Made by a program: the position numbers and the translations under genes
The notes under the pieces: model-generated
Seen by the model: only the letters and a program-made list of their open reading frames with translations
Told to the model about the DNA's origin: nothing
The model's database searches: none
UHGV virus genome: UHGV-0332340
Origin: a virus
Length of the DNA: 42,718 nt
Strand: one strand, 5' to 3'
Shown: positions 8,592 through 24,247 of the stretch, piece after piece
How positions within the stretch are numbered: the stretch's first letter is position 1
Layout of the letters: every line of letters starts with the position of its first letter

Positions 8592-9353
8592 TCATCTTAA
8601 TAGCCAGCTGTCAACATCTTTTTGTAAAATTTTTCCTTTTGAACGTTTAATTAATCCATCAAACGTGCGGTAGGTTTCTGACTGGTGTAGCTCTATATTA
8701 ATCATATCATCTTTACCAAATTTGTCAACAAATAACTCTCGTTCTGTTGTACTTAAATGACGGTAACTACCATTACTAAAGACGTCATATCCAGTGTGCG
8801 TTTTAGTTGATTCGTAAAATTCAATCACTTTAGGGTCATAATTAGCTTCAAGTAATAGGGTATCAATCTTTAAATCATTTTCCAATAGATACTTTTCATA
8901 GTCTGTCATTGTACTTAAGTCTGTGGCAAATAGAGTGTTTTGGTTAGGGGTCTCCATGATGAAACCATGTGTTTCTGTATACTCTTCCCCAGCTCCATGA
9001 TAATTCTGAAGGGTTGTGAACTTAACTTCACCAATTTGAAATTGGAAGTCATCTTTGAAAATAAGGTCTAACAGTGGTAAGTTACGTCTCTTTAAGTTAT
9101 CTTGTACTTCCTGGTTGCCTAATACTTTAATGTGCGGAAAGTTTTCTCTTATTTTTTTATATGTTGTATATACAAGGTGGTCTTGGTGTTTATGTGTTAT
9201 TAGAATAAATTGCTTGTTAAATAAATAGGGCTCAATATATTTATATGGCTTCCCTATGTCAATTAAGAATCCTAACTTATCATAATAGATAGAAGCGCAG
9301 TTTCCTTTACTTCCTGTATAGTGAATATCAAAACTCATGGTTTCTGTTTTCAT
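8592..9353 (-). CDS. Metallo-beta-lactamase-fold hydrolase
   Basis: HxHxDH motif (ITHKHQDH) and later His/Asp residues, 253 aa. Common in phage recombination modules. Confidence 0.65.
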   Translation of the reverse strand: MKTETMSFDIHYTGSKGNCASIYYDKLGFLIDIGKPYKYIEPYLFNKQFILITHKHQDHLVYTTYKKIRENFPHIKVLGNQEVQDNLKRRNLPLLDLIFKDDFQFQIGEVKFTTLQNYHGAGEEYTETHGFIMETPNQNTLFATDLSTMTDYEKYLLENDLKIDTLLLEANYDPKVIEFYESTKTHTGYDVFSNGSYRHLSTTERELFVDKFGKDDMINIELHQSETYRTFDGLIKRSKGKILQKDVDSWLLR

Positions 9354-9798
9354 ATGACGCGCCCTCCAACTCCCACAATTCTCTACCTAATTTATTAGCT
9401 TCTTTCCAATGTTTTTTCTCACACGCTTCTCCAATAGCTACAATTAAAGCATGTCGTTTTGGCTCTACTTTCTTTCTGAAAGGACGTGCCACACGTTGTA
9501 GGCCTTCTTTTGGATTAATTGCGTAACCAATATTGGTATAGTGACTATTTTGTACGTTACCGTCTTTGAAATATAAATAACCTAAGTTATGCTCGTTTCT
9601 AACAAACATCTCTGCTACTAATTGAGAGACGTAGAACTTGCGTGACTTCTTATGTGAGCCTTCAAGTACTACATACATCTTTCCATTCTTTGAATCAACT
9701 AGTTCATTTTCATATCGCTCTTTGTCTAAATGAAACACATGCCCCTCATCTGTTATGGCATACATGTCGTATGGTTCGTTTAATGGTTCAAATCTCAT
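9328..9798 (-). CDS. HNH homing endonuclease (HNH_3-like)
   Basis: An HVFHL...SQLVAEMF...GYLYFKDGNVQN pattern resembling HNH_3/AP2 homing endonucleases. Overlaps the flanking genes, as expected for a free-standing insertion. Confidence 0.55.
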   Translation of the reverse strand: MRFEPLNEPYDMYAITDEGHVFHLDKERYENELVDSKNGKMYVVLEGSHKKSRKFYVSQLVAEMFVRNEHNLGYLYFKDGNVQNSHYTNIGYAINPKEGLQRVARPFRKKVEPKRHALIVAIGEACEKKHWKEANKLGRELWELEGASYENRNHEF

Positions 9799-10624: not shown

Positions 10625-11368
10625 TTAGTCCTCCATCCTTCTTATTTCACGCTTACGAACGCTCTCATATGTTTGCAGTACTTCATCCTCTGATAATGGT
10701 GGATTACAGCCAATCTGGTTTATATATAGAGACCACACACGCACCTCATCATGGTTTAATCCAGTTGCAAATAATTTACCAATCTGAGTAGTTAGCCAGA
10801 TATTTCTTCCGCCTTCCCCACTACCTGCAATTATATCACCTAATAAGTTCGCCGTCCATTTTCTTTCTCGCTTCTTATTCTTTTTAGTAATCGTTTTATC
10901 TGTGAACATTTCTAACCACTTCTCAGGTAACTCTGCGAGTTCTACGTCACGCACTACTTCGTAATACTTTCCGTCAATTTGGCTAGGTGGTGCAACAACG
11001 TACCTACCATGGACTTGGAAGTCAACGCCTTCTAGCTGCGAATGATTTTGAATAAATTGTGTTTCATTATATTTCTCATCTAATTTGAAATAAAAATGAT
11101 AGCCTCCGCTTGGCGTCTTGACAACCTTGGTCTTTGGCAATTCAATGTCATACGTATCCAAAAACTCTATTAAGTTACCCATACCATTCACACCTTTATG
11201 AGTGTCAATATCAATTACTGCAATCCCACTGGATGAGCCAGTGAGTATACCCACGTTGCCACCTTCTTGCACCCATGATTGAATTAATTTAAAATCTTCT
11301 CCATCAAACGCTCCAGCTACTAGTGGCGCTTTACCATTTTTCCTTAGTCTTAATTGTTTCATTTTCAT
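10625..11368 (-). CDS. Bifunctional primase-polymerase (Prim-Pol, AEP) N-terminal domain protein
   Basis: VIDIDTHKG and TPSGGYHFYF motifs typical of the Prim-Pol catalytic domain. Conserved early promoter with an operator-like palindrome upstream. Confidence 0.7.
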   Translation of the reverse strand: MKMKQLRLRKNGKAPLVAGAFDGEDFKLIQSWVQEGGNVGILTGSSSGIAVIDIDTHKGVNGMGNLIEFLDTYDIELPKTKVVKTPSGGYHFYFKLDEKYNETQFIQNHSQLEGVDFQVHGRYVVAPPSQIDGKYYEVVRDVELAELPEKWLEMFTDKTITKKNKKRERKWTANLLGDIIAGSGEGGRNIWLTTQIGKLFATGLNHDEVRVWSLYINQIGCNPPLSEDEVLQTYESVRKREIRRMED

Positions 11369-14293: not shown

Positions 14294-14712
14294 TCTCTGT
14301 GCTGTAATTTTAGAATAAACTCATTGTTAATTGGAACAACACTGACAACTTCCATATCTTTAAACTTTTCAATAAATTCAGATTTTGTGTAAGTTTGCTT
14401 TTCACCAAATACTTTGAAATTAGTGTGTTCAAAAAAGGGTTGTAGTACAAATTGTACGGCGTGAAACTTATACTCAACTTCATGTTTGATATCTCCTATT
14501 CTATCACTAACAATCCAAGCAATTTCATGTTCAATCTTTTGGGCTTGCTCATCTGTTAAGTCATAGTAAATTCCACTTGGTTCAAGACAATCATCACATA
14601 AATGATTGTCTGAACGATAATCTTCATTCCAATACTTAATTCCTTTACATTTCTTGCATTGTCCTTTTGTCCATTCTATAGAGTCTGATGTATAGATAGT
14701 TTCGTTTTCCAT
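14281..14712 (-). CDS. Zinc-ribbon (Cys4) protein
   Basis: CKKCKG...CDDC cysteine pairs near the N-terminus. Confidence 0.45.
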   Translation of the reverse strand: MENETIYTSDSIEWTKGQCKKCKGIKYWNEDYRSDNHLCDDCLEPSGIYYDLTDEQAQKIEHEIAWIVSDRIGDIKHEVEYKFHAVQFVLQPFFEHTNFKVFGEKQTYTKSEFIEKFKDMEVVSVVPINNEFILKLQHREWSF

Positions 14713-15024
14713 CTTAATATCCTCCTTCTTCTAACCAGTGTATAAGTACTCCTGCTCCGTAAATTACTGCTCCAATAAATAATAACCCCATCATCATAAA
14801 TGTCATGTTTGTTTCCTCCTTAGGTGTTTTTAAATTCAATATAACATTTGTAAAGTGTGTAGCAATATATTGGCATTGCTAACAAGTTTATTGGATTTTG
14901 TTTGTATGTTACAACGCCCATCAATATGCCTAAATAAATAATTGCTTTTTTCATGTTACTTCCTCCTTCTCTATATTTATATAATACAATACCCTCAACA
15001 ATAAGTCAAGGGTAAAGTTTAAAA

Positions 15025-15249
15025 TTATTCAATTATTTTCACAATAGATACAATGTGCTCTACTCTAAATATACTATCATACTTGGTTGGTGTTCTACCT
15101 GGTTTTTGTTCACCCTCATACTCAAAACGCCACAAACCTTTACCATCTGTTTCTGCAACGGTGTCCCAATATTTTTCTTGTAGATCGTCGTTTGTTCTGA
15201 CTACAAATGGTGTATCACTGTTTACTGTGTATACATAATACTTGTTCAT
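15025..15249 (-). CDS. Hypothetical protein
   Basis: 74-aa ORF. Confidence 0.4.
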   Translation of the reverse strand: MNKYYVYTVNSDTPFVVRTNDDLQEKYWDTVAETDGKGLWRFEYEGEQKPGRTPTKYDSIFRVEHIVSIVKIIE

Positions 15250-15260
15250 TCCGTTTCCTC

Positions 15261-16847
15261 CTATTCTACATCATTGAAAATGTTTACATACTCTGTTCCT
15301 GCTAATGCGTTCATTAAATATGGTCTAATTGACTCATTGTCTCCGTTGCGTGCAATCTTTAGACCAGTGAGGACACGTGCTTTACTTGTACGCTTTTCTT
15401 CAAAACCTTGTTTAAGTAATAATTCTTTCATGGTACGCCAGTTCATTGATTTGTTAATATTATTCTCTTTAGTGTACACATTAAAAATATTCTTCAATAG
15501 TGTTAGATTAACAGTGCCTTCTTCATCTTCCACAATGACAGGTACTTCACTCAAAAACTCTTTAGATGGGTCATTTGATTCAATATAAGCTTTCTTGAAG
15601 GCAATCATATCTTCTGTTTCTGTGAATGGGTTTTCACCATTTGTACCAGCATCTAAAATCTTTTTGAATTGTTGAATACAGAACCATGCAAATTTACCAA
15701 GTTGCTCTTTTGACTCACGTTCCTCACGTTGTTTGTTGAACTCATTAATACGTTCACGTGCTTCTGGTGTATCAAGATTGGTGTTGAAGTTTAGAATCAG
15801 AATACGTCTATACCATCCATTTGTACGGTCGTTAAATGCTGGTAGTTCATTCATGGAGAACATTAATTTCGCATAGTTGGTGAAACTAAACGCATCTTTT
15901 CCTTTTTTCTCAGCGTGAACGGCATCAAGACCTCCTGAAAGCTTTTTCAGTGTCTCTGTACCTTTTACAAAGTTTGCACTTGAATCCGCTTCAAAGTTTA
16001 GTAATTTATGGTGCAATGAAGCCTTGTCAAAACGATTGTTTTTATCTGCTAAGCTGTCTAGACCAACTGCTGAGCTGTTTTTGAATCCAATTAATTTGTT
16101 CATGATAAATCCACCTACATATGATTTACCGTTTGACCCATTACCTAAGAGGTATAAAATAGATTGATATTTGTATTCTCTATAATACATATACCCAATG
16201 TACTCATATAATGTTTGGGCTTGGTCTTTTAGTAGATAATCAATCCATTGTTTTGCGAGTAGTTCATCTGTCTCATCTGTTTTTATTAAAGGGTATGGTA
16301 ATTGAAGTGTGTGGTAATCTTCTAATCTGGTCTCTCTAATATCATTTGTTTTAAAGTCATATGTCCCATTTTCAAAGGCAATAATGTTTGGGTTAGGGTT
16401 GTCACCTAGTGGGGCGTGTTCCCCACGTGTCATGGAGCGATTAGCTAACTCAGGAGCTAGTTTCTTCATTTCTTTGCGAATCTCATTCCCGAATTCTGGA
16501 TTTCTGAATTGTGGTGTGAATTTTGGTGCTAAAATGTTCTCAAAATACCAATCTGAATATTTGTAACTACCTAGATTTACCTCAGACCAGATACGTGTGT
16601 CTGCATTATATACGTATGGCGCATTCAAGTTAGGGTGAGCGTACACATAGGCTAGCTGGTTAAATTTATCAATGAATAATTCCTGTTGAATCTCAAATTT
16701 TGGTTGTGTACCATCTTTGCCTCCGTAGTACATCCTTCCTACTTCTGAATTGAAGTCCACAAACTCCTCACTTGGAAAGTTTTTATTTGAAACTGGTAGT
16801 AATTCCTCAACTGGTGCTGAGTAATCTATTTTAGTTAGTTCATTCAT
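15261..16847 (-). CDS. D5/P4-type primase C-terminal domain + SF3 helicase
   Basis: Walker A LLGNGSNGKS, Walker B LLNFEAD and motif C FSMNELP give an SF3 NTPase. The N-terminal ~230 aa resemble a primase C-terminal/D5_N region. Confidence 0.65.
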   Translation of the reverse strand: MNELTKIDYSAPVEELLPVSNKNFPSEEFVDFNSEVGRMYYGGKDGTQPKFEIQQELFIDKFNQLAYVYAHPNLNAPYVYNADTRIWSEVNLGSYKYSDWYFENILAPKFTPQFRNPEFGNEIRKEMKKLAPELANRSMTRGEHAPLGDNPNPNIIAFENGTYDFKTNDIRETRLEDYHTLQLPYPLIKTDETDELLAKQWIDYLLKDQAQTLYEYIGYMYYREYKYQSILYLLGNGSNGKSYVGGFIMNKLIGFKNSSAVGLDSLADKNNRFDKASLHHKLLNFEADSSANFVKGTETLKKLSGGLDAVHAEKKGKDAFSFTNYAKLMFSMNELPAFNDRTNGWYRRILILNFNTNLDTPEARERINEFNKQREERESKEQLGKFAWFCIQQFKKILDAGTNGENPFTETEDMIAFKKAYIESNDPSKEFLSEVPVIVEDEEGTVNLTLLKNIFNVYTKENNINKSMNWRTMKELLLKQGFEEKRTSKARVLTGLKIARNGDNESIRPYLMNALAGTEYVNIFNDVE

Positions 16848-17368
16848 TATTCCATTTCCTCCTTATATTTAAACGTGTAGCCCCCAGTTTGATTCAGTCT
16901 ACCTTGCAGTGCTCGTGAAATGCTAGGTTGATGTAAGCTCAATTCTCTGGCGCATTCGTTTGAGCTATTGAAGTCTGTAGATTCACCCGTTTTGATATTA
17001 GTTGCAATGATTGGAATACTTTGCGTTTTAGTAATCGCTTTACCTATTCTTTCATTGCGTGTTCCGTGATTATTATTTTCTTTTGCAGTAACCCATTCTA
17101 GGTTGTCAACTCTATTGTTTGTTTTATCTTCGTCAATATGATTCACTTGCGATTTGTTATCTGGGTTTGGTATAAACGCTTGTGCTACTAGTCTATGAAT
17201 TCGCTTGTTAGACTTAGTACTGTTTTTGAATAGCCCCACTCTTAGATATCCCTGTGAATTAATATAACTCTTCAAAATACGGTTAGTATTAACTCGCTTA
17301 ACTCTTCCCAAATTACTCACTTGATAGATACCTTCATAGTCTTTAATATCTTTCCAAATTTCATTCAT
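16847..17368 (-). CDS. HNH homing endonuclease (NUMOD4 + HNH_3)
   Basis: WKDIKDYEGIYQVSNLGRVKR is a NUMOD4 motif. HRLVAQAF...VNHID.DKTNNRVDNLEWVT is an HNH_3 motif. ATGA overlap with the helicase gene. Confidence 0.8.
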   Translation of the reverse strand: MNEIWKDIKDYEGIYQVSNLGRVKRVNTNRILKSYINSQGYLRVGLFKNSTKSNKRIHRLVAQAFIPNPDNKSQVNHIDEDKTNNRVDNLEWVTAKENNNHGTRNERIGKAITKTQSIPIIATNIKTGESTDFNSSNECARELSLHQPSISRALQGRLNQTGGYTFKYKEEME

Positions 17369-19962: not shown

Positions 19963-20014
19963 CCTCCTCTTATCTTATGCACTAAGTATAACATGCTTAG
20001 AAACCAGTGTCAAC
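19963..20014 (-). promoter_or_regulatory. Early promoter P2 (TTGACA-N17-TATACT + conserved leader)
   Basis: TTGACA, 17-nt spacer, then TATACTTAGTGCATAAGATAAGAGGAGG. Confidence 0.6.
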
Positions 20015-20243
20015 TGTTTAGCAACATTTTTCTAATTGTTTTATAGTGTCCTTTGATTGCCGCTTCTTTGTTTCTATATTGCTTGGTATACTCTGATAGT
20101 TCATCATAGTTAAAAATCTGTCTGTCCATTGCTTCAAAAACCATTGTCTCGTAAAGTGGAATTGTTTTGCTCAGCCAGGTTGTGCTAATGCAATACTCAA
20201 CGCCGTCTATTTCAATAAATGTTTTAATGTCTATTTCATTCAT
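20010..20243 (-). CDS. Hypothetical protein
   Basis: 77-aa ORF. Confidence 0.4.
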   Translation of the reverse strand: MNEIDIKTFIEIDGVEYCISTTWLSKTIPLYETMVFEAMDRQIFNYDELSEYTKQYRNKEAAIKGHYKTIRKMLLNS

Positions 20244-20276
20244 AATTAATTCCTCCTTTTTATTTTACTTCAAGTA

Positions 20277-20495
20277 CTACTTGCTGTTTAGATACTCATA
20301 TAGTACCAATGCATCCAACCCAATAATCATTGGTAGAGTCAATGTGATTGCTAAAATACCATCTAGCGTTTCTGAGAATCCCTGTATTGAAATCATCATA
20401 CTTGTCTCGTAGATTAGTATTACTCCAAAGGTATTTATTGCTAACAACGACAACATATTTGCCACCATCACTAATATTAACAAAAGTTTCTTCAT
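20277..20495 (-). CDS. Small membrane protein, first early gene
   Basis: Real start is MKKLLLILVMV at 20495. The upstream 'LVHKLRGGINM' is a translated leader. The protein has 2-3 TM helices. Confidence 0.45.
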   Translation of the reverse strand: MKKLLLILVMVANMLSLLAINTFGVILIYETSMMISIQGFSETLDGILAITLTLPMIIGLDALVLYEYLNSK

Positions 20496-20502
20496 ATTTA
20501 TT

Positions 20503-20553
20503 CCTCCTCTTAACTTATGAACTAAGTATAGCATGTTCAGCACCAAGCGTCAA
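20503..20553 (-). promoter_or_regulatory. Early promoter P1 (TTGACG-N17-TATACT + conserved leader CATAAGTTAAGAGGAGG)
   Basis: On the minus strand: TTGACG, a 17-nt spacer, then TATACTTAGTTCATAAGTTAAGAGGAGG. Confidence 0.6.
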
Positions 20554-20977
20554 TATAAAAGATTAAAAATGTCACTAATTTTTATGTTTTGTCACTATAT
20601 GACACAGAAATGACGTTTTAAAAATCGCTGTATCCCTTGATACTCTAGGGAAGAGACCAATTTAGTGACAAAATGACAAAAAAAGTACCATACTCTTTAT
20701 ATATAATATATAATATATGCTAATACGCATATTATTTACTTTTTTAGTATTAACTATAATATATTTTGTCATTTTGTCATTATAAAAATAAGAATGTAGA
20801 TATACCAAGGGATACAGCGATTTTAGGTGCCAAAATTAGTGACAAAACGATGACAAAAACAATCCATTTAGTGACAAAATGACTATTTTAGACTGACTTT
20901 TTGTCACTAATAACTGGTTTACTCAACCAACACAGTATCCCTTATCTATGATATAATAGAAACAAAGAGGAGGAGAT
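20547..20977. promoter_or_regulatory. Divergent early/late switch region; probable origin (iterons + long-range inverted repeat + AT-rich core)
   Basis: TTAGTGACA[AAATGAC] occurs three times direct (20662, 20836, 20867) and three times inverted (20571, 20590, 20902). A 19-bp perfect inverted repeat at 20621-20639 and 20806-20824 flanks an AT-rich core. The late promoter TGaTATAAT sits at 20949-20957. Confidence 0.55.
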
Positions 20978-21169
20978 ATGATGAAAGAAGTATTAACCAC
21001 TATCTTATCAATTATAGTAAGTCTTTTGATTATCATTGGTTTCGGTTACATTGCTATCTATTTAGGTATGAAGTTACCATATCAATTATTTCAGCAAGGT
21101 GATTGGGGCTTTGCAATTGCACAGCTGGTTATAGTATGGAGCTGGATATTAGGAGGTAAGGGTAGATGA
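20978..21169 (+). CDS. Small membrane protein (2 TM)
   Basis: RBS AGGAGGAG, 63 aa. First gene on the late strand. Confidence 0.5.
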   Translation: MMKEVLTTILSIIVSLLIIIGFGYIAIYLGMKLPYQLFQQGDWGFAIAQLVIVWSWILGGKGR

Positions 21170-21375
21170 CTAAGATTAATATCACTTTAGACACTGATAA
21201 TAATAAATATTGTGTTGAGGAATTCGAAAGCGAAAACAATCAACAAGGATTTAAAACAGATAAATTAAAAGAAGTTACTTATTATATTAATGATTTATTG
21301 GAGGACTTAAGTAATGAAGACAGACAAACAACTACTAGCACTAAACAAAACAGACCTAGTAAAAGAGTATCGTAA
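21166..21375 (+). CDS. Hypothetical protein
   Basis: ATGA overlap with the previous gene, 69 aa. Confidence 0.4.
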   Translation: MTKINITLDTDNNKYCVEEFESENNQQGFKTDKLKEVTYYINDLLEDLSNEDRQTTTSTKQNRPSKRVS

Positions 21376-21496
21376 GTTAGAAAGTAAACTACAAGAAGTG
21401 TCAGCCAACACTAAAGAGCCAACACTTGAAGAAGCTATTAAGATAGTACAACATCATAATATGATTGTACGCAAGAAACAGCACTATAACTTCTAG
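21314..21496 (+). CDS. Hypothetical protein (overlaps previous ORF by 62 nt)
   Basis: RBS GGAGGA lies 8 nt before the ATG. Which of the two overlapping frames is expressed is unresolved. Confidence 0.3.
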   Translation: MKTDKQLLALNKTDLVKEYRKLESKLQEVSANTKEPTLEEAIKIVQHHNMIVRKKQHYNF

Positions 21497-21507
21497 GAGG
21501 AACGAGT

Positions 21508-21699
21508 ATGGACGAACCAATCATTGAACCAGCAGAACCAACCCTAACAGAGATCGCTCGCTTAGTTGCTAGACGTGATGAGTTAGAAGCTGGTCTCCCA
21601 ATGTATGACGCTCAATACATGCAACACGCAGAAGCATATGCAAGAGTAATGAATGACTTATATGATATTAATAGTAAACTAAAGGAGGTGGGACTCTAA
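21508..21699 (+). CDS. Hypothetical protein
   Basis: RBS TAGGAGGAAC, 63 aa. Confidence 0.45.
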   Translation: MDEPIIEPAEPTLTEIARLVARRDELEAGLPMYDAQYMQHAEAYARVMNDLYDINSKLKEVGL

Positions 21700-21914
21700 T
21701 GCCATATATGTATTGTAATCAACAAGGCTGTAATGAAACAGTTAAGCTACCAGCACAATACTGTGCCAAACATCAACCATTGAAGGTACCTAATCCGTTA
21801 CCAGAACCTGAGTCAGTCAAACCGTTACAAGATACCAAATCATCAGACCTGACACTTAAAGTAGATGTGGATAAAGTTAGCAAGAGTATGAACACAAAGA
21901 AGACTACTAAATAA
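21699..21914 (+). CDS. Zinc-ribbon protein paralogous to the HNH endonuclease N-terminus
   Basis: MPYMYCNQQGCNETVKLPAQYCAKHQ aligns with MPQRKCAVASCRAYVTLPERYCDAHQ of the next gene. Both share the C-x4-C-x10-C-x2-H spacing. Confidence 0.45.
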   Translation: MPYMYCNQQGCNETVKLPAQYCAKHQPLKVPNPLPEPESVKPLQDTKSSDLTLKVDVDKVSKSMNTKKTTK

Positions 21915-21958
21915 TAGTAGTCTTTTATTATATACAATAGAAGGAAGGAGTAAGTACA

Positions 21959-22351
21959 ATGCCACAACGTAAGTGCGCAGTGGCTTCGTGTCGCGCGTAT
22001 GTCACGCTACCTGAGCGCTACTGTGACGCACATCAAGGGTACAACAATAGTCAATACAATAAGCATGTGAGATACAACGATGACAACAAGAAGTACAGTA
22101 ACTTCTATCATTCAACCCAATGGAGGAACGCACGTAAAGCCAAGCTAATGGAGCAACCACTATGCGAGGTATGCTTGGCACAAGGCAAGTACACCAACGC
22201 TAACATGGTTCACCATAAGATAGAATTAAGAAGTCCAAATGGATGGAAACATAGACTTGATTTAAATAACTTAGAATCAATCTGTTACGAGTGTCACAAC
22301 AAGGAAGAGCATAGCTATAGTTGGAAAAATAGAAGTAGGCAACAGCGCTAA
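21959..22351 (+). CDS. HNH endonuclease, terminase-associated (HK97 gp74-like)
   Basis: C-terminal HNH motif (MVHHKIELRS...NLESICYECHNKEEH) and an N-terminal Cys3His ribbon. It lies just upstream of the cos-like region and terS, as in HNH-dependent cos phages. Confidence 0.7.
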   Translation: MPQRKCAVASCRAYVTLPERYCDAHQGYNNSQYNKHVRYNDDNKKYSNFYHSTQWRNARKAKLMEQPLCEVCLAQGKYTNANMVHHKIELRSPNGWKHRLDLNNLESICYECHNKEEHSYSWKNRSRQQR

Positions 22352-22700
22352 ATCAACAACCGCACAGTCAAAATTATTTTTAGGGAGACCCAAAATGTTT
22401 TTACCCCCCTACCTTTTTATAACGAATTAATCGCTGCCCCCTCTTCTTCGCACGAAATTCTAAAAATGAAGTTTGAAAAACGTCCTTTTCCCCTCGTAAA
22501 CGTGATTTAAATCTGGTTTCTTGTGTTGAAAATAAAGGAGTCATACTATATATAGTATGTTATTTCGCTTATACGATTGTTCCCCCTATAAACAAGATTG
22601 AACCCTGGTTTCTTCACACAGGGTTCTTTATATATGATATAATAAAGCTATATAAGGGAGTTATCCGTTAACTCAAAAATAAAATAAGGGAGGTTACACA
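22352..22700 (+). promoter_or_regulatory. Non-coding packaging-site-like region (candidate cos/terS-binding repeats), terminator-like hairpin and late promoter
   Basis: About 350 bp without ORFs. Four C-tracts of the TTnCCCCCT type at 22404, 22437, 22490 and 22582. An 18-bp perfect palindrome at 22542-22559. Hairpin gaaccctg...cagggttc at 22600-22626. Promoter TGaTATAAT at 22635-22643. Confidence 0.4.
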
Positions 22701-22883
22701 ATGCCTGCACCAAAACCAGTGTATGTAAAAGATTTATCAACTGGGCAGACACGCAAATTCAAATCACAATTCGCAGCAGATGATTTTTATAATAAGAAGC
22801 GTGGCTACTTTAAGGACATTAAAACAAAATTAGGCGGACGCAATCGTCACTTTGAAATTACAGAAGCCCCAAAGGAGGATTAA
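22701..22883 (+). CDS. Hypothetical basic protein
   Basis: RBS AAGGGAGG, 60 aa. Confidence 0.4.
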   Translation: MPAPKPVYVKDLSTGQTRKFKSQFAADDFYNKKRGYFKDIKTKLGGRNRHFEITEAPKED

Positions 22884-22887
22884 ACAA

Positions 22888-23217
22888 ATGGCAGAACAAT
22901 GGAAGACAATTCCAGGATACCCCAATTATAAAGTTTCAACAATGGGGCGTGTATTAGCAACAGATGGAATAAAACAAACACAGGTTAAGCCGTATGAAAA
23001 AGATCATGGGTATCTATGTGTTGATTTGTATAAAAATGGGCAACGTACTGGAAAACGCGTTCACATATTGGTAGCAGAAGCGTTTCTTAGTGGTAAAAAA
23101 GAAGGATTCACGGTAGATCATAAAGACCGTAACAGACACAACAATAAGGTGTCAAATCTAATATGGTCTAGCGTATCAGACCAAAACAAAAATAGAACGT
23201 CATGGGCTAAGGAGTGA
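22888..23217 (+). CDS. HNH homing endonuclease (NUMOD4 + HNH_3)
   Basis: WKTIPGYPNYKVSTMGRV (NUMOD4), then VHILVAEAF...VDHKDRNRHNNKVSNL (HNH_3). RBS AAGGAGG before the ATG at 22888. Confidence 0.75.
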   Translation: MAEQWKTIPGYPNYKVSTMGRVLATDGIKQTQVKPYEKDHGYLCVDLYKNGQRTGKRVHILVAEAFLSGKKEGFTVDHKDRNRHNNKVSNLIWSSVSDQNKNRTSWAKE

Positions 23218-23221
23218 TAAA

Positions 23222-23686
23222 ATGGCAAGACCACGAAAATTATTAAACGCTCAGAGTGGTAACTTGACCACTCAGCAACGTGAGGAGCGTGAGAAGGAGG
23301 AAGAAGTACTTTATAACTATGAAAAACTAGACTTTAGTTTTTATCCACCAGGCTTATTACCACAAGCATTCAATGAATGGGATCGCATTGGAGCATATGT
23401 GGGCGATTTGCCTATTTCTGAATTAGATGTTAATACAGTTATTAGATACTGTAATTACAATTATTTATACGCAGAAGCAGTAGAGAAAGTAGCTCAGATG
23501 GGCGCAATTGACCCTGAGACAGGTAAAGCCAATCCATGGGTAAATGCTATGAACTCCTATTCAAAAGAGCTTAAAACGGCAACCAACGACTTAGGTTTAA
23601 CAATCAATTCAAGAATGAAAATTATTCTTCCAGCTGAGAAAGAGAAAGAAGTAATTGACCCATTTGCAAAAATGTTTGAGGGATAA
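23222..23686 (+). CDS. terS: Terminase small subunit (P27 family)
   Basis: MARPRKLL... N-terminus and ~150-aa size typical of the P27 family. Sits upstream of terL. Confidence 0.75.
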   Translation: MARPRKLLNAQSGNLTTQQREEREKEEEVLYNYEKLDFSFYPPGLLPQAFNEWDRIGAYVGDLPISELDVNTVIRYCNYNYLYAEAVEKVAQMGAIDPETGKANPWVNAMNSYSKELKTATNDLGLTINSRMKIILPAEKEKEVIDPFAKMFEG

Positions 23687-23719
23687 ACTACACAAAAATA
23701 AAACTTTGTGGTATAATAA

Positions 23720-24204
23720 ATATATAAATCGAACATTGGAGACACCAAAATATAGGTGATGTAGGAGTCATCTATATTGAACAGTTACCAGACCATTAGG
23801 GTGTATTACTATGGTTCACGCACCCTCTCCCCAGAGATGAGTCTTTGGGGATGTACATATTAGCTAGGTGGCATCTAATACACCTCTCGTGACACCGCAA
23901 GCGAGAGTATGCTAAAACGCTCTCTAATGAGTAGCCATGTGAGAGTTGGAAACCTTAGCTCACAGCGGTATATAGTGGTTCACCACACTCCACATTAAAA
24001 AGGGTTACTGTTTGGATATCAAAGGAACAGTCGTTTACGGCTAACGAAAAGACCGCAAGCCACAGTATCTGGCTATGGGTGTGGTAGTATAACCCTACTT
24101 GACGACTAACACACTGAAAGCGACCATACATTTGATGTAGGGGCGTGTATATTCGCAGATATTACAACATTCCACTAGTCTAGCTAACTAGTGGGTCTTT
24201 TTTT
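23720..24204 (+). ncRNA. Candidate large structured non-coding RNA between terS and terL
   Basis: No ORF >=60 aa in any frame across 23749-24247. Local GC is ~45% against ~35% for the genome. Extended -10 promoter TGGTATAAT at 23709-23717. Strong intrinsic terminator at 24172-24204 (ccactagt/actagtgg plus T7). Many local hairpins and repeated CTCTC/GAGAG and ACCGCAAGC motifs. Confidence 0.45.
24172..24204 (+). terminator. Intrinsic terminator ending the terS-terL intergenic transcript
   Basis: 8-bp stem ccactagt/actagtgg, 7-nt loop, then TCTTTTTTT. Confidence 0.7.
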
Positions 24205-24205
24205 A

Positions 24206-24214
24206 TGCTATAAT
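24206..24214 (+). promoter_or_regulatory. Extended -10 promoter (TGcTATAAT) for terL
   Basis: Lies immediately after the terminator, 25 nt before the RBS AAAGGAGG of terL. Overlaps the ATGCTA...TAGCAT inverted repeat. Confidence 0.5.
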
Positions 24215-24247
24215 ATAAGTGACTAGCATAAAAGGAGGAATACATAA

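Follow-up and report, generated by a model that had tools for sequence, protein, structure and literature searches.

The divergent intergenic region of the 42,718-nucleotide virus genome UHGV-0332340 raises the question of why so many copies of short repeats, in both orientations, are placed between two oppositely transcribed gene blocks. In what follows, the window denotes this whole stretch of DNA at its full length. It is a circularly permuted genome of a siphophage of Enterococcus faecium, with the phages dArtagnan, BUCT630, RG1, vb_GEC_Ef_S_9, Aramis, IME-EFm1 and IME-EFm5 as relatives. A first-pass annotation, made from the sequence alone, had interpreted the region both as a candidate origin of replication and as a genetic switch. 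Judged from sequence comparisons, positions 20560-20915 are probably a bidirectional replication origin of the type known for the Rep and PriRep initiators of the Staphylococcus aureus pathogenicity islands (SaPIs), read by a D5-like helicase that is encoded in the same genome. The candidate origin of the first-pass annotation is supported by non-random and conserved repeats, by the most meltable DNA of the window, by a (confounded) GC-skew minimum, by a SaPI-Rep-like helicase that tracks the repeats, and by divergent promoters.

Iterons are placed on both sides of the most meltable DNA of the genome

The repeats had originally been described as six copies of a 9-mer. Five of these are exact copies of TTAGTGACA (plus strand: 20662, 20836, 20868; minus strand: 20570, 20902), but the sixth, at 20590 on the minus strand, has one mismatch. 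Shuffled sequences led to an expectation of 0.85 exact copies per window, none of 100 shuffles reached five copies, and no exact copy was found in the window outside 20570-20910. The uniform tail AAA(A/C)GATGAC that had been ascribed to the direct copies was not observed, since these are followed twice by AAATGAC and once by AAACGATGAC. A tandem repeat does exist, as GTCATTTTGTCAT, but at 20768-20780 and not at 20766-20781. The true repeat unit is the shorter pentamer/octamer TGACA(AAA). Within 20560-20915 (356 bp), TGACA occurs 11 times where 0.86 copies are expected (Poisson P = 2e-9), and TGACAAA occurs nine times where 0.12 copies are expected (P = 1e-14). Besides the 11 exact TGACA copies, three TGAC(G/T) variants are present within 20570-20910.

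The overall layout consists of TGACAaaaTGACA (20666-20678, the left inner iteron pair), a core with 84% AT, TGTCAtttTGTCA, and further iteron sets on the outside (Table 1). TGACA at 20666 and 20674 on the plus strand faces TGTCA at 20767 and 20775, the minus-strand orientation. These two tandem iterons per side form a second, inner 19-nt inverted repeat (TAGTGACAAAATGACAAAA at 20663-20681 and TTTTGTCATTTTGTCATTA at 20764-20782) that directly brackets the AT-rich core. In the right outer set, the members of the direct-repeat family are spaced 32 nt from start to start. Calling the core almost pure AT was an overstatement, as the AT content is 79% between the arms of the outer inverted repeat and 84% in the central 82 bp. 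Nonetheless, nowhere in the window except at positions 20682-20763 do 82 bp attain an AT content of 84%, and the core is the least stable duplex of the 42.7-kb window at scales of 60, 82 and 100 bp, about four standard deviations above the mean.

The first-pass annotation had suggested a comparison with related phages. Eight close relatives keep the iterons and the inner inverted repeat, together with the two divergent promoters PL and PR and an inward-facing promoter-like site. When 185,579 genomes were scanned with the exact sequence TAGTGACAAAATGACAAAA for copies in satellites or host origins, eight matches were obtained in unrelated metagenome-assembled genomes and none in Enterococcus, the chance expectation for this collection being about four by our own estimate.

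The repeat type varies with the replicative helicase in most relatives

The window encodes a D5/SaPI-Rep-type superfamily 3 (SF3) helicase, which we propose, from its homology, as the initiator that reads the iterons. The sole sequence match of this protein in the PDB was 7OLA, the helicase part of PriRep5 from S. aureus SaPI5 (E = 3e-10). With its AlphaFold2 model (mean pLDDT 71.6), Foldseek returned 7OLA and 7OM0 as the best matches, followed by the PrimPol of African swine fever virus and the poxvirus D5/E5 helicases; the identity to PriRep5 in the fold alignment is 13-15%. Residues 412-498 of the model (pLDDT approximately 63-85) are arranged as helix, helix, strand, helix, helix, strand, strand, a pattern that a winged helix could have. 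Among the replication-module proteins scanned, which comprised part of the early open reading frames (ORFs), families of the Rep_3, RepA or O type were not detected. The putative DNA polymerase is 94-95% identical to the 'DNA polymerase' of IME-EFm1 and the B-family polymerase of Aramis, over the parts present in these loci (41-71% of its length), and Pfam yielded nothing for it at a cut-off of E = 0.01.

To the named relatives we added about 45 further syntenic loci from IMG/VR, Logan and ENA (designated by L-numbers, L013 being IME-EFm1). In these roughly 45 relatives, the syntenic region always contains inverted repeat sets around an AT-rich centre, and the sequence of the repeats varies by helicase clade. 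As read from the sequences, this natural series presents one architecture with at least nine repeat types. Where the helicase is at least 95% identical to that of the window, the repeats are of the TGACA type in nearly all loci with a recovered region, and 9-11 copies of TGACAA are found in most of them; within this class, the IME-EFm5-like loci have ATGACA/ATGTCA, and AGTGAC/CGTCAC variants dominate in L025. Helicases with 83% and 80% identity are accompanied by TGACA plus TAGACA, the helicase with 75% identity (L059) by nine copies of TTAGTGTAG, and the one with 58% identity (L058) by 12 copies of AAAGTAACA. The IME-EFm1 helicase (29%) goes with GGTACACAAAA / GGGACACAAAA, and L041, whose helicase is 87% identical to that of IME-EFm1, has mainly ATGAACC. 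Lastly, AGAACA, GTTACA, GCATAACA and GTGGAACA are found in the Efquatrovirus clades.

The most informative case is L059, because its region can be aligned with that of the window and shows a change from ACA to TAG at all copies (TTAGTG-ACA-AAATG-ACA in the window versus TTAGTG-TAG-AAAATG-TAG). Such a concerted change points to a single trans-acting reader and not to base-pairing. The helicases of L059 and the window are 98% identical in the ATPase core, compared to 55% in residues 448-500 and 46% in the variable first 50 residues; apart from the latter, the divergence is thus greatest in the predicted C-terminal winged helix. Among 44 early and flanking proteins that were profiled against seven relatives, the helicase alone tracks the iteron type. 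In IME-EFm1 the polymerase, the Prim-Pol, the SNF2 helicase, the DUF1351 protein and others remain 68-97% identical despite wholly different repeats, and the small proteins that are lost in this phage are also lost in L060 and L061, both of which retain TGACA. The flanking small proteins were considered as repeat readers and rejected, as they lack DNA-binding families and are distributed independently of the repeats.

The divergent helicase genes of IME-EFm1 (14651-16330) and L059 (10001-11593) adjoin the region with one small gene in between, while in the window and in Aramis the helicase gene lies about 3.7 kb away from it. A joint exchange of initiator and origin, as one module, would lead to such an adjoining position.

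Divergent promoters flank the iteron array

Minus-strand genes occupy the ORF map from position 20495 down to 2331. They include a deoxynucleoside-kinase-like gene, the putative DNA polymerase, a DUF1351 gene, a metallo-hydrolase gene, the Prim-Pol, an SNF2 helicase, the D5-like helicase and many small ORFs. Every gene from position 20978 on belongs to the plus strand; in this block, five small ORFs and an HNH endonuclease precede terS, terL and the structural genes. Gene orientation throughout the window is away from the region at 20496-20977, and the annotations of dArtagnan, BUCT630, RG1 and further related phages contain an equivalent gap. The record ends of IME-EFm1, dArtagnan and Aramis align to window positions 22431-22440. 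For IME-EFm1 the termini were mapped experimentally and have a 9-nt 3' overhang (PMC4445525); the flanks of the cos site in the window match these mapped termini, with one mismatch within the overhang. The cos site at 22432-22440 implies that the window is a circular permutation and places the candidate origin approximately 1.5 kb from an end of the genome.

As the first-pass annotation had stated, the array is flanked by divergent promoters, here designated PL and PR, both of the host type. PR was missed by the promoter scan because its -35 box is weak; at this promoter, the stretch ACACAGTATCCCTTATCTATGATATAAT is invariant in the eight close relatives, and Aramis, IME-EFm1 and IME-EFm5 show conservation as well. 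The inward-facing promoter-like site would direct transcription leftward, into the AT core; the right arm of the outer inverted repeat overlaps its -35 box. A scan for intrinsic terminators in 20200-21300 found none. The TGACA copies themselves were also considered as a battery of -35 boxes, an idea that was dropped since a plausible -10 box at a distance of 16-18 nt exists for two or three of them only.

The presence of these promoters suggests an alternative explanation that we regard as unlikely, namely that the repeats are operators of a phage transcription factor that times PL and PR, which would make the region a regulatory switch in place of an origin, or nothing but a switch. In favour of this, the -35 boxes of PL and PR follow 17-19 bp downstream of the outermost repeats (20570-78 and 20902-10), one GTATCCCTT box lies in the PR spacer while another overlaps the -35 box of the inward-facing promoter, and the repeat changes between relatives would also fit co-evolution of a regulator with its operators. 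Nevertheless, helix-turn-helix (HTH) or repressor families were not detectable in the ten small genes on either side, at cut-offs of E = 1 for Pfam and, for PHROGs, of E = 0.01 (leftward genes) and 0.001 (rightward genes). Moreover, phages with the same iterons differ in their first leftward gene, and changes of the iterons leave the first rightward gene conserved. The majority of the TGACA copies lack a -10 partner and are placed outside any promoter, and a set of at least 11 sites arranged symmetrically about the most meltable DNA is not an operator layout. The sole protein that tracks the repeats is a replicative helicase. The genetic switch of the first-pass annotation was not substantiated in the form of a CI/Cro-type switch either, as no adjacent repressor is detectable and the TGACA sites lie at least 17-19 bp outside the PL and PR hexamers.

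The arms of the outer inverted repeat match halves of a palindromic box

The 19-bp perfect inverted repeat that had been noticed in the first-pass annotation is present at 20621-20639 and 20806-20824 and extends to 22 nt at 95%. The third partial copy was also found again, as GTATCCCTT at 20935-20943, inside the PR spacer. Compared to the relatives, however, this 19-bp inverted repeat is the least conserved element of the region. GEC_S9, SSBHU and KEN22 lack its left arm, and dArtagnan and BUCT630 have substitutions that do not compensate each other. For these reasons, and because the two halves make up a local hairpin in other relatives, a role as a conserved stem was rejected.

What the phages appear to have in common is a palindromic box, GCTGTATCCCTTG-(G/T)GAGAGT-AAGGA(C/T)A(C/G)AGCGATTT, which forms a local hairpin in IME-EFm1, Aramis, L059, L060, L061 and L041. 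Abbreviated as GCTGTATCCCTTG...AAGGATACAGCGATTTT, it is found in the window at 20621-20642, 20803-20824 and 20935-20943, in IME-EFm1 at 17034-17075 (coordinates of L013), and in the intergenic regions of L059 and L060. In the latter two loci one hairpin copy is located on either side of the core. In the window the left copy retains the 5' half and the right copy the 3' half of the box, which accounts for the long-range inverted repeat. CCTT...AAGG hairpins are present in the Efquatrovirus regions and are possibly analogous to the palindromic box.

An explanation in terms of structure would be that the core and the inverted repeats encode a small RNA with a regulatory function or a single strand that adopts a structure, driven by the inward-facing promoter and bounded by the 19-bp stem, with the repeats acting by base-pairing. 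The good inward-facing promoter (TTGGTA, 18 nt, TATAAT), the fold z-scores of -8.8 for single-stranded DNA at 20615-20830 and of -2.5 for the predicted RNA, and the T-runs behind both outer arms would fit this idea. We consider it very unlikely, because relatives do not preserve the outer stem, no intrinsic terminator is present, and copies outside any stem change together with those inside, which argues for a trans-acting reader. The fold scores lose weight as well, since inverted repeats produce them automatically. The only Rfam match in 20000-23500 was a sub-threshold one to RsaA, outside the region. Lastly, it is extremely improbable that the segment is a miniature mobile element or that the region contains packaging (cos-accessory) sites: the perfect 19-bp terminal inverted repeats around approximately 200 bp and the location less than 2 kb from a genome end might suggest so, but the segment has a single copy in the window (other matches with three mismatches look like chance), its flanks show no target-site duplication, relatives lose one arm yet retain the interior instead of showing presence or absence, the above-mentioned matches to the inner repeat are all in unrelated taxa and close in number to chance, and a cos function was rejected because cos maps 1.5 kb away, beyond six genes.

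Comparison with known origins

SaPI Reps are self-loading helicases whose C-terminal winged helix reads penta- or hexanucleotide iterons (PMC9371898). Their origins consist of 6-12 iterons around a central AT-rich region, with at least two iterons per side in opposite directions (PMC9371898, summarizing Ubeda 2007 and 2012), and are positioned immediately downstream (3') of the rep ORF (PMC9371898). From its sequence, the region in the window displays each of these anatomical characteristics except for the position relative to the rep gene. Like the origins of SaPIbov1, SaPI1 and SaPI5, it has short iterons, in this case 11 copies of the pentamer TGACA, and an AT-rich centre with iterons at 20570-20678 and 20767-20910, at least two per side and in opposite orientation. 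As in the SaPIs, a D5-type helicase is encoded as the putative initiator, with PriRep5 as its best match and with self-loading predicted from homology; the Prim-Pol primase is separate from the helicase, as in SaPI1 and SaPIbov1, and a variable C-terminal region of the helicase may go with the iteron type. There are also differences. The SaPIs are satellite islands, whereas the present region lies between two divergent promoters of a virulent siphophage. Its iterons are nested, the inner pairs and outer sets being of opposite polarity, it has additional conserved GTATCCCTT boxes and an inward-facing promoter, and its helicase is no more than a distant relative of PriRep5.

A purely in silico proposal for the Efquatrovirus phage Abitsa describes a SaPI5-like origin in which seven 10-bp iterons surround an AT-rich region (PMC13517437, Viruses, August 2026). 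Both loci are divergent, syntenic, near one genome end and at the GC-skew switch, and both proposals make the same argument from a PriRep5-like helicase and were made in silico. In phage Ef5.1, we found that the syntenic region contains an equivalent array of ATGAAGAACA. The phages differ in that ours belongs to an E. faecium clade with a helicase that is 30-33% identical, and has TGACA(AAA) instead of 10-bp AGAACA-type repeats. In contrast to the present analysis, the Abitsa paper reports no comparison across helicase clades (PMC13517437). A replication origin in a sister phage genus had thus already been proposed, and the region described here is its counterpart, a result that is sound and not surprising. 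For the group of IME-EFm1, IME-EFm5 and dArtagnan, our literature search found no described origin.

Lambda- and plasmid-type origins have tandem direct repeats of 17-22 bp on one side of the unwinding element and an initiator of the O/RepA family by which a host DnaB loader is recruited, unlike the repeats of 5-9 bp that flank the core of the window in both orientations. The origin of Lactococcus phage c2 reportedly lies in the divergent intergenic region between early and late genes and is said to be AT-rich with direct and inverted repeats. Like c2, the phage of the window is a virulent siphophage with a Gram-positive host, and its candidate origin would likewise lie between divergent early and late genes, with promoters within or beside it. 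A transcript from an early promoter is reportedly required at the c2 origin, and no SF3 helicase is known to be paired with iterons there, which would set it apart from the window. The alpha protein of P4 is a helicase of the D5/P4 family whose C-terminal winged helix binds the octamer iterons TGTTCACC. Its primase and helicase functions, fused in one protein, come from the same protein families as those of the window, and a second site, crr, is required. Neither a primase-helicase fusion nor a crr-like second site is evident in the window.

Proposed mechanism and points against it

From the observed co-variation, anatomy, enrichment, conservation and helicase homology, we infer binding, melting, start site and promoter effects as follows. 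The SF3 helicase would recognize the TGACA(AAA) iterons via its C-terminal winged-helix domain, and the inverted iteron sets would place helicase hexamers on both sides of the 82-bp AT core, which these hexamers would melt while loading themselves. Subsequently, the Prim-Pol (10625-11368) would prime, the phage polymerase would extend, and the forks would travel outward, co-directionally with all transcription. Divergent transcription from PL and PR would leave the intervening DNA negatively supercoiled (twin-domain model), which would aid melting, and helicase bound at the outermost iterons, 17-19 bp upstream of each -35 box, could modulate both promoters.

Two extensions of this origin model, which we consider jointly, are rather unlikely. 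Firstly, the region may be a composite origin-promoter unit in which occupancy of the origin feeds back on PL and PR and the conserved inward-facing promoter (20808-20779), by transcription into the unwinding element, activates or primes initiation. Secondly, the palindromic box GCTGTATCCCTTG...CAAGGGATACAGC, split across the core here, may be a new cis-element, recognized for instance by the primase or by a factor of the host, that is common to the origins of the E. faecium phage group.

Several observations weigh against a helicase-read origin. The candidate origin is located 3.65 kb upstream of the 5' end of the helicase gene (0.4-5.5 kb upstream in relatives), unlike the SaPI arrangement. 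The assignment of the winged helix depends on a moderate-confidence model (mean pLDDT 71.6). The cumulative GC skew has its minimum at 20-21 kb, in agreement with the proposal of the first-pass annotation, but this minimum is inseparable from the switch in transcribed strand; because each genome half has one gene orientation, GC skew is unusable as independent evidence. The 19-bp inverted repeat and the inward-facing promoter play no role in the origin model. Furthermore, the loci L033, L040 and L052 (Efquatrovirus) are dominated by eight copies of AAAGTGTAGACA, and no helicase substitution separates them from phages of the AGAACA type, which breaks a perfect co-variation of helicase and repeats in Efquatrovirus. 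These loci still retain 5-6 copies of AGAACA, and a second factor may therefore bind the extra AAAGTGTAGACA repeat. Alternatively, the specificity in this group may be determined by something other than the helicase. L041 likewise departs from the repeats of IME-EFm1 in spite of the high identity of their helicases. Lastly, the association between helicase and repeats partly reflects shared ancestry, because the helicase gene and the region are physically linked.

Table 1. Positions of the elements of the candidate origin and of associated genes and sites in the window.
Feature	Position	Strand	Remarks
Putative B-family DNA polymerase, 759 aa	3324-5603	minus	Named from relatives' annotation
Prim-Pol + PriCT_1 primase	10625-11368	minus	Likely priming partner; Pfam 2.6e-23 and 2.6e-9
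D5/SaPI-Rep-type SF3 helicase, 528 aa	15261-16847	minus	'DNA primase' in relatives' annotation; Pfam D5_N + DUF5906
Sole divergent intergenic region, ~480 bp	20496-20977		Between leftward early/replication operon and rightward small-gene/HNH/cos/terminase block; from ORF map
PL, sigma-70-type, leftward	20525-20553	minus	TTGACG, 17 nt, TGcTATACT (extended -10); scan 10/12 matches + TG; kept in 8 relatives
Left outer iteron set	20570-20615		TGTCACTAA 20570-78 (minus), TGTCACTAT 20590-98 (minus), TGACA 20600-04 (plus), variant TGACG 20611-15 (plus)
Left arm of 19/22-bp inverted repeat, AAAATCGCTGTATCCCTTGATA	20621-20642	plus	One copy of GTATCCCTT box
Left inner iteron pair, TTAGTGACAaaaTGACA	20662-20678	plus	Abuts AT core; invariant or nearly so in 8 relatives
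AT-rich core, putative DNA-unwinding element	20682-20763		82 bp, 84% AT
Right inner iteron pair, TGTCAtttTGTCA	20767-20779	minus	Orientation opposite to left inner pair; invariant in 8 relatives
Inward-facing promoter-like site	20779-20808	minus	TTGGTA, 18 nt, TATAAT; scan 10/12 matches; sequence kept in 8 relatives
Right arm of 19/22-bp inverted repeat	20803-20824	minus	Aligns with 3' half of CCCTTGgGAGAGTAAGGATAGAGCGATTTT hairpin box of L059, L060, IME-EFm1, Aramis
Right outer iteron set	20836-20910		TTAGTGACA 20836 (plus), TGACA 20851 (plus), TTAGTGACA 20868 (plus), TGACT variants 20880 and 20894 (plus), TGTCACTAA 20902-10 (minus)
PR, rightward	20929-20957	plus	Extended -10 TGaTATAAT (20949-57), weak -35 AACACA; read from sequence
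cos site	22432-22440		9-nt 3' overhang; ...CCTTTTTATAACGAATTAAT / CGCTGCCCC / CTCTTCTTCGCACGAAATTC...

Other features of the genome

The gap between terS and terL (23687-24247) comprises 561 bp that are non-coding and GC-richer, with a fold z-score of -2.9 and no Rfam match. It starts with a promoter-like site, TGgTATAAT (23709-17), and ends with the hairpin ccactagtctagctaactagtgg plus a T-run (24174-24205), which is followed by a second promoter, TATGCTATAAT, in front of terL. This gap may encode a non-coding RNA of approximately 480 nt. A 71-aa ORF (21699-21914) and the cos-proximal HNH endonuclease (21959-22351) have a cysteine-rich N-terminus in common (MPYMYCNQQGCNETVKLPAQYCAKH / MPQRKCAVASCRAYVTLPERYCDAH), and residues 1-28 of the former match the same PHROG (144) as the HNH neighbour. 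The ORF looks like a partial duplication. Free-standing genes for HNH/NUMOD-type homing endonucleases were found at 9328-9798, 16847-17368 and 22852-23217, in the replication and packaging modules; since these genes vary in presence among relatives, they add to the mosaic structure.

Implications

Phages of the IME-EFm1/IME-EFm5/dArtagnan group are under development against vancomycin-resistant E. faecium. Knowledge of their origin and initiator would aid the engineering of these phages, and interference based on the origin is a possible route to resistance. A pairing of origin and initiator would also help to explain why the region is a recombination mosaic. The series of iteron switches, including the clean change from ACA to TAG, provides natural material on how SF3/D5 initiators read origins. 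Paired with the changes in the winged helix that are predicted from the structural model, these switches might amount to a readable recognition code for SF3 initiators.

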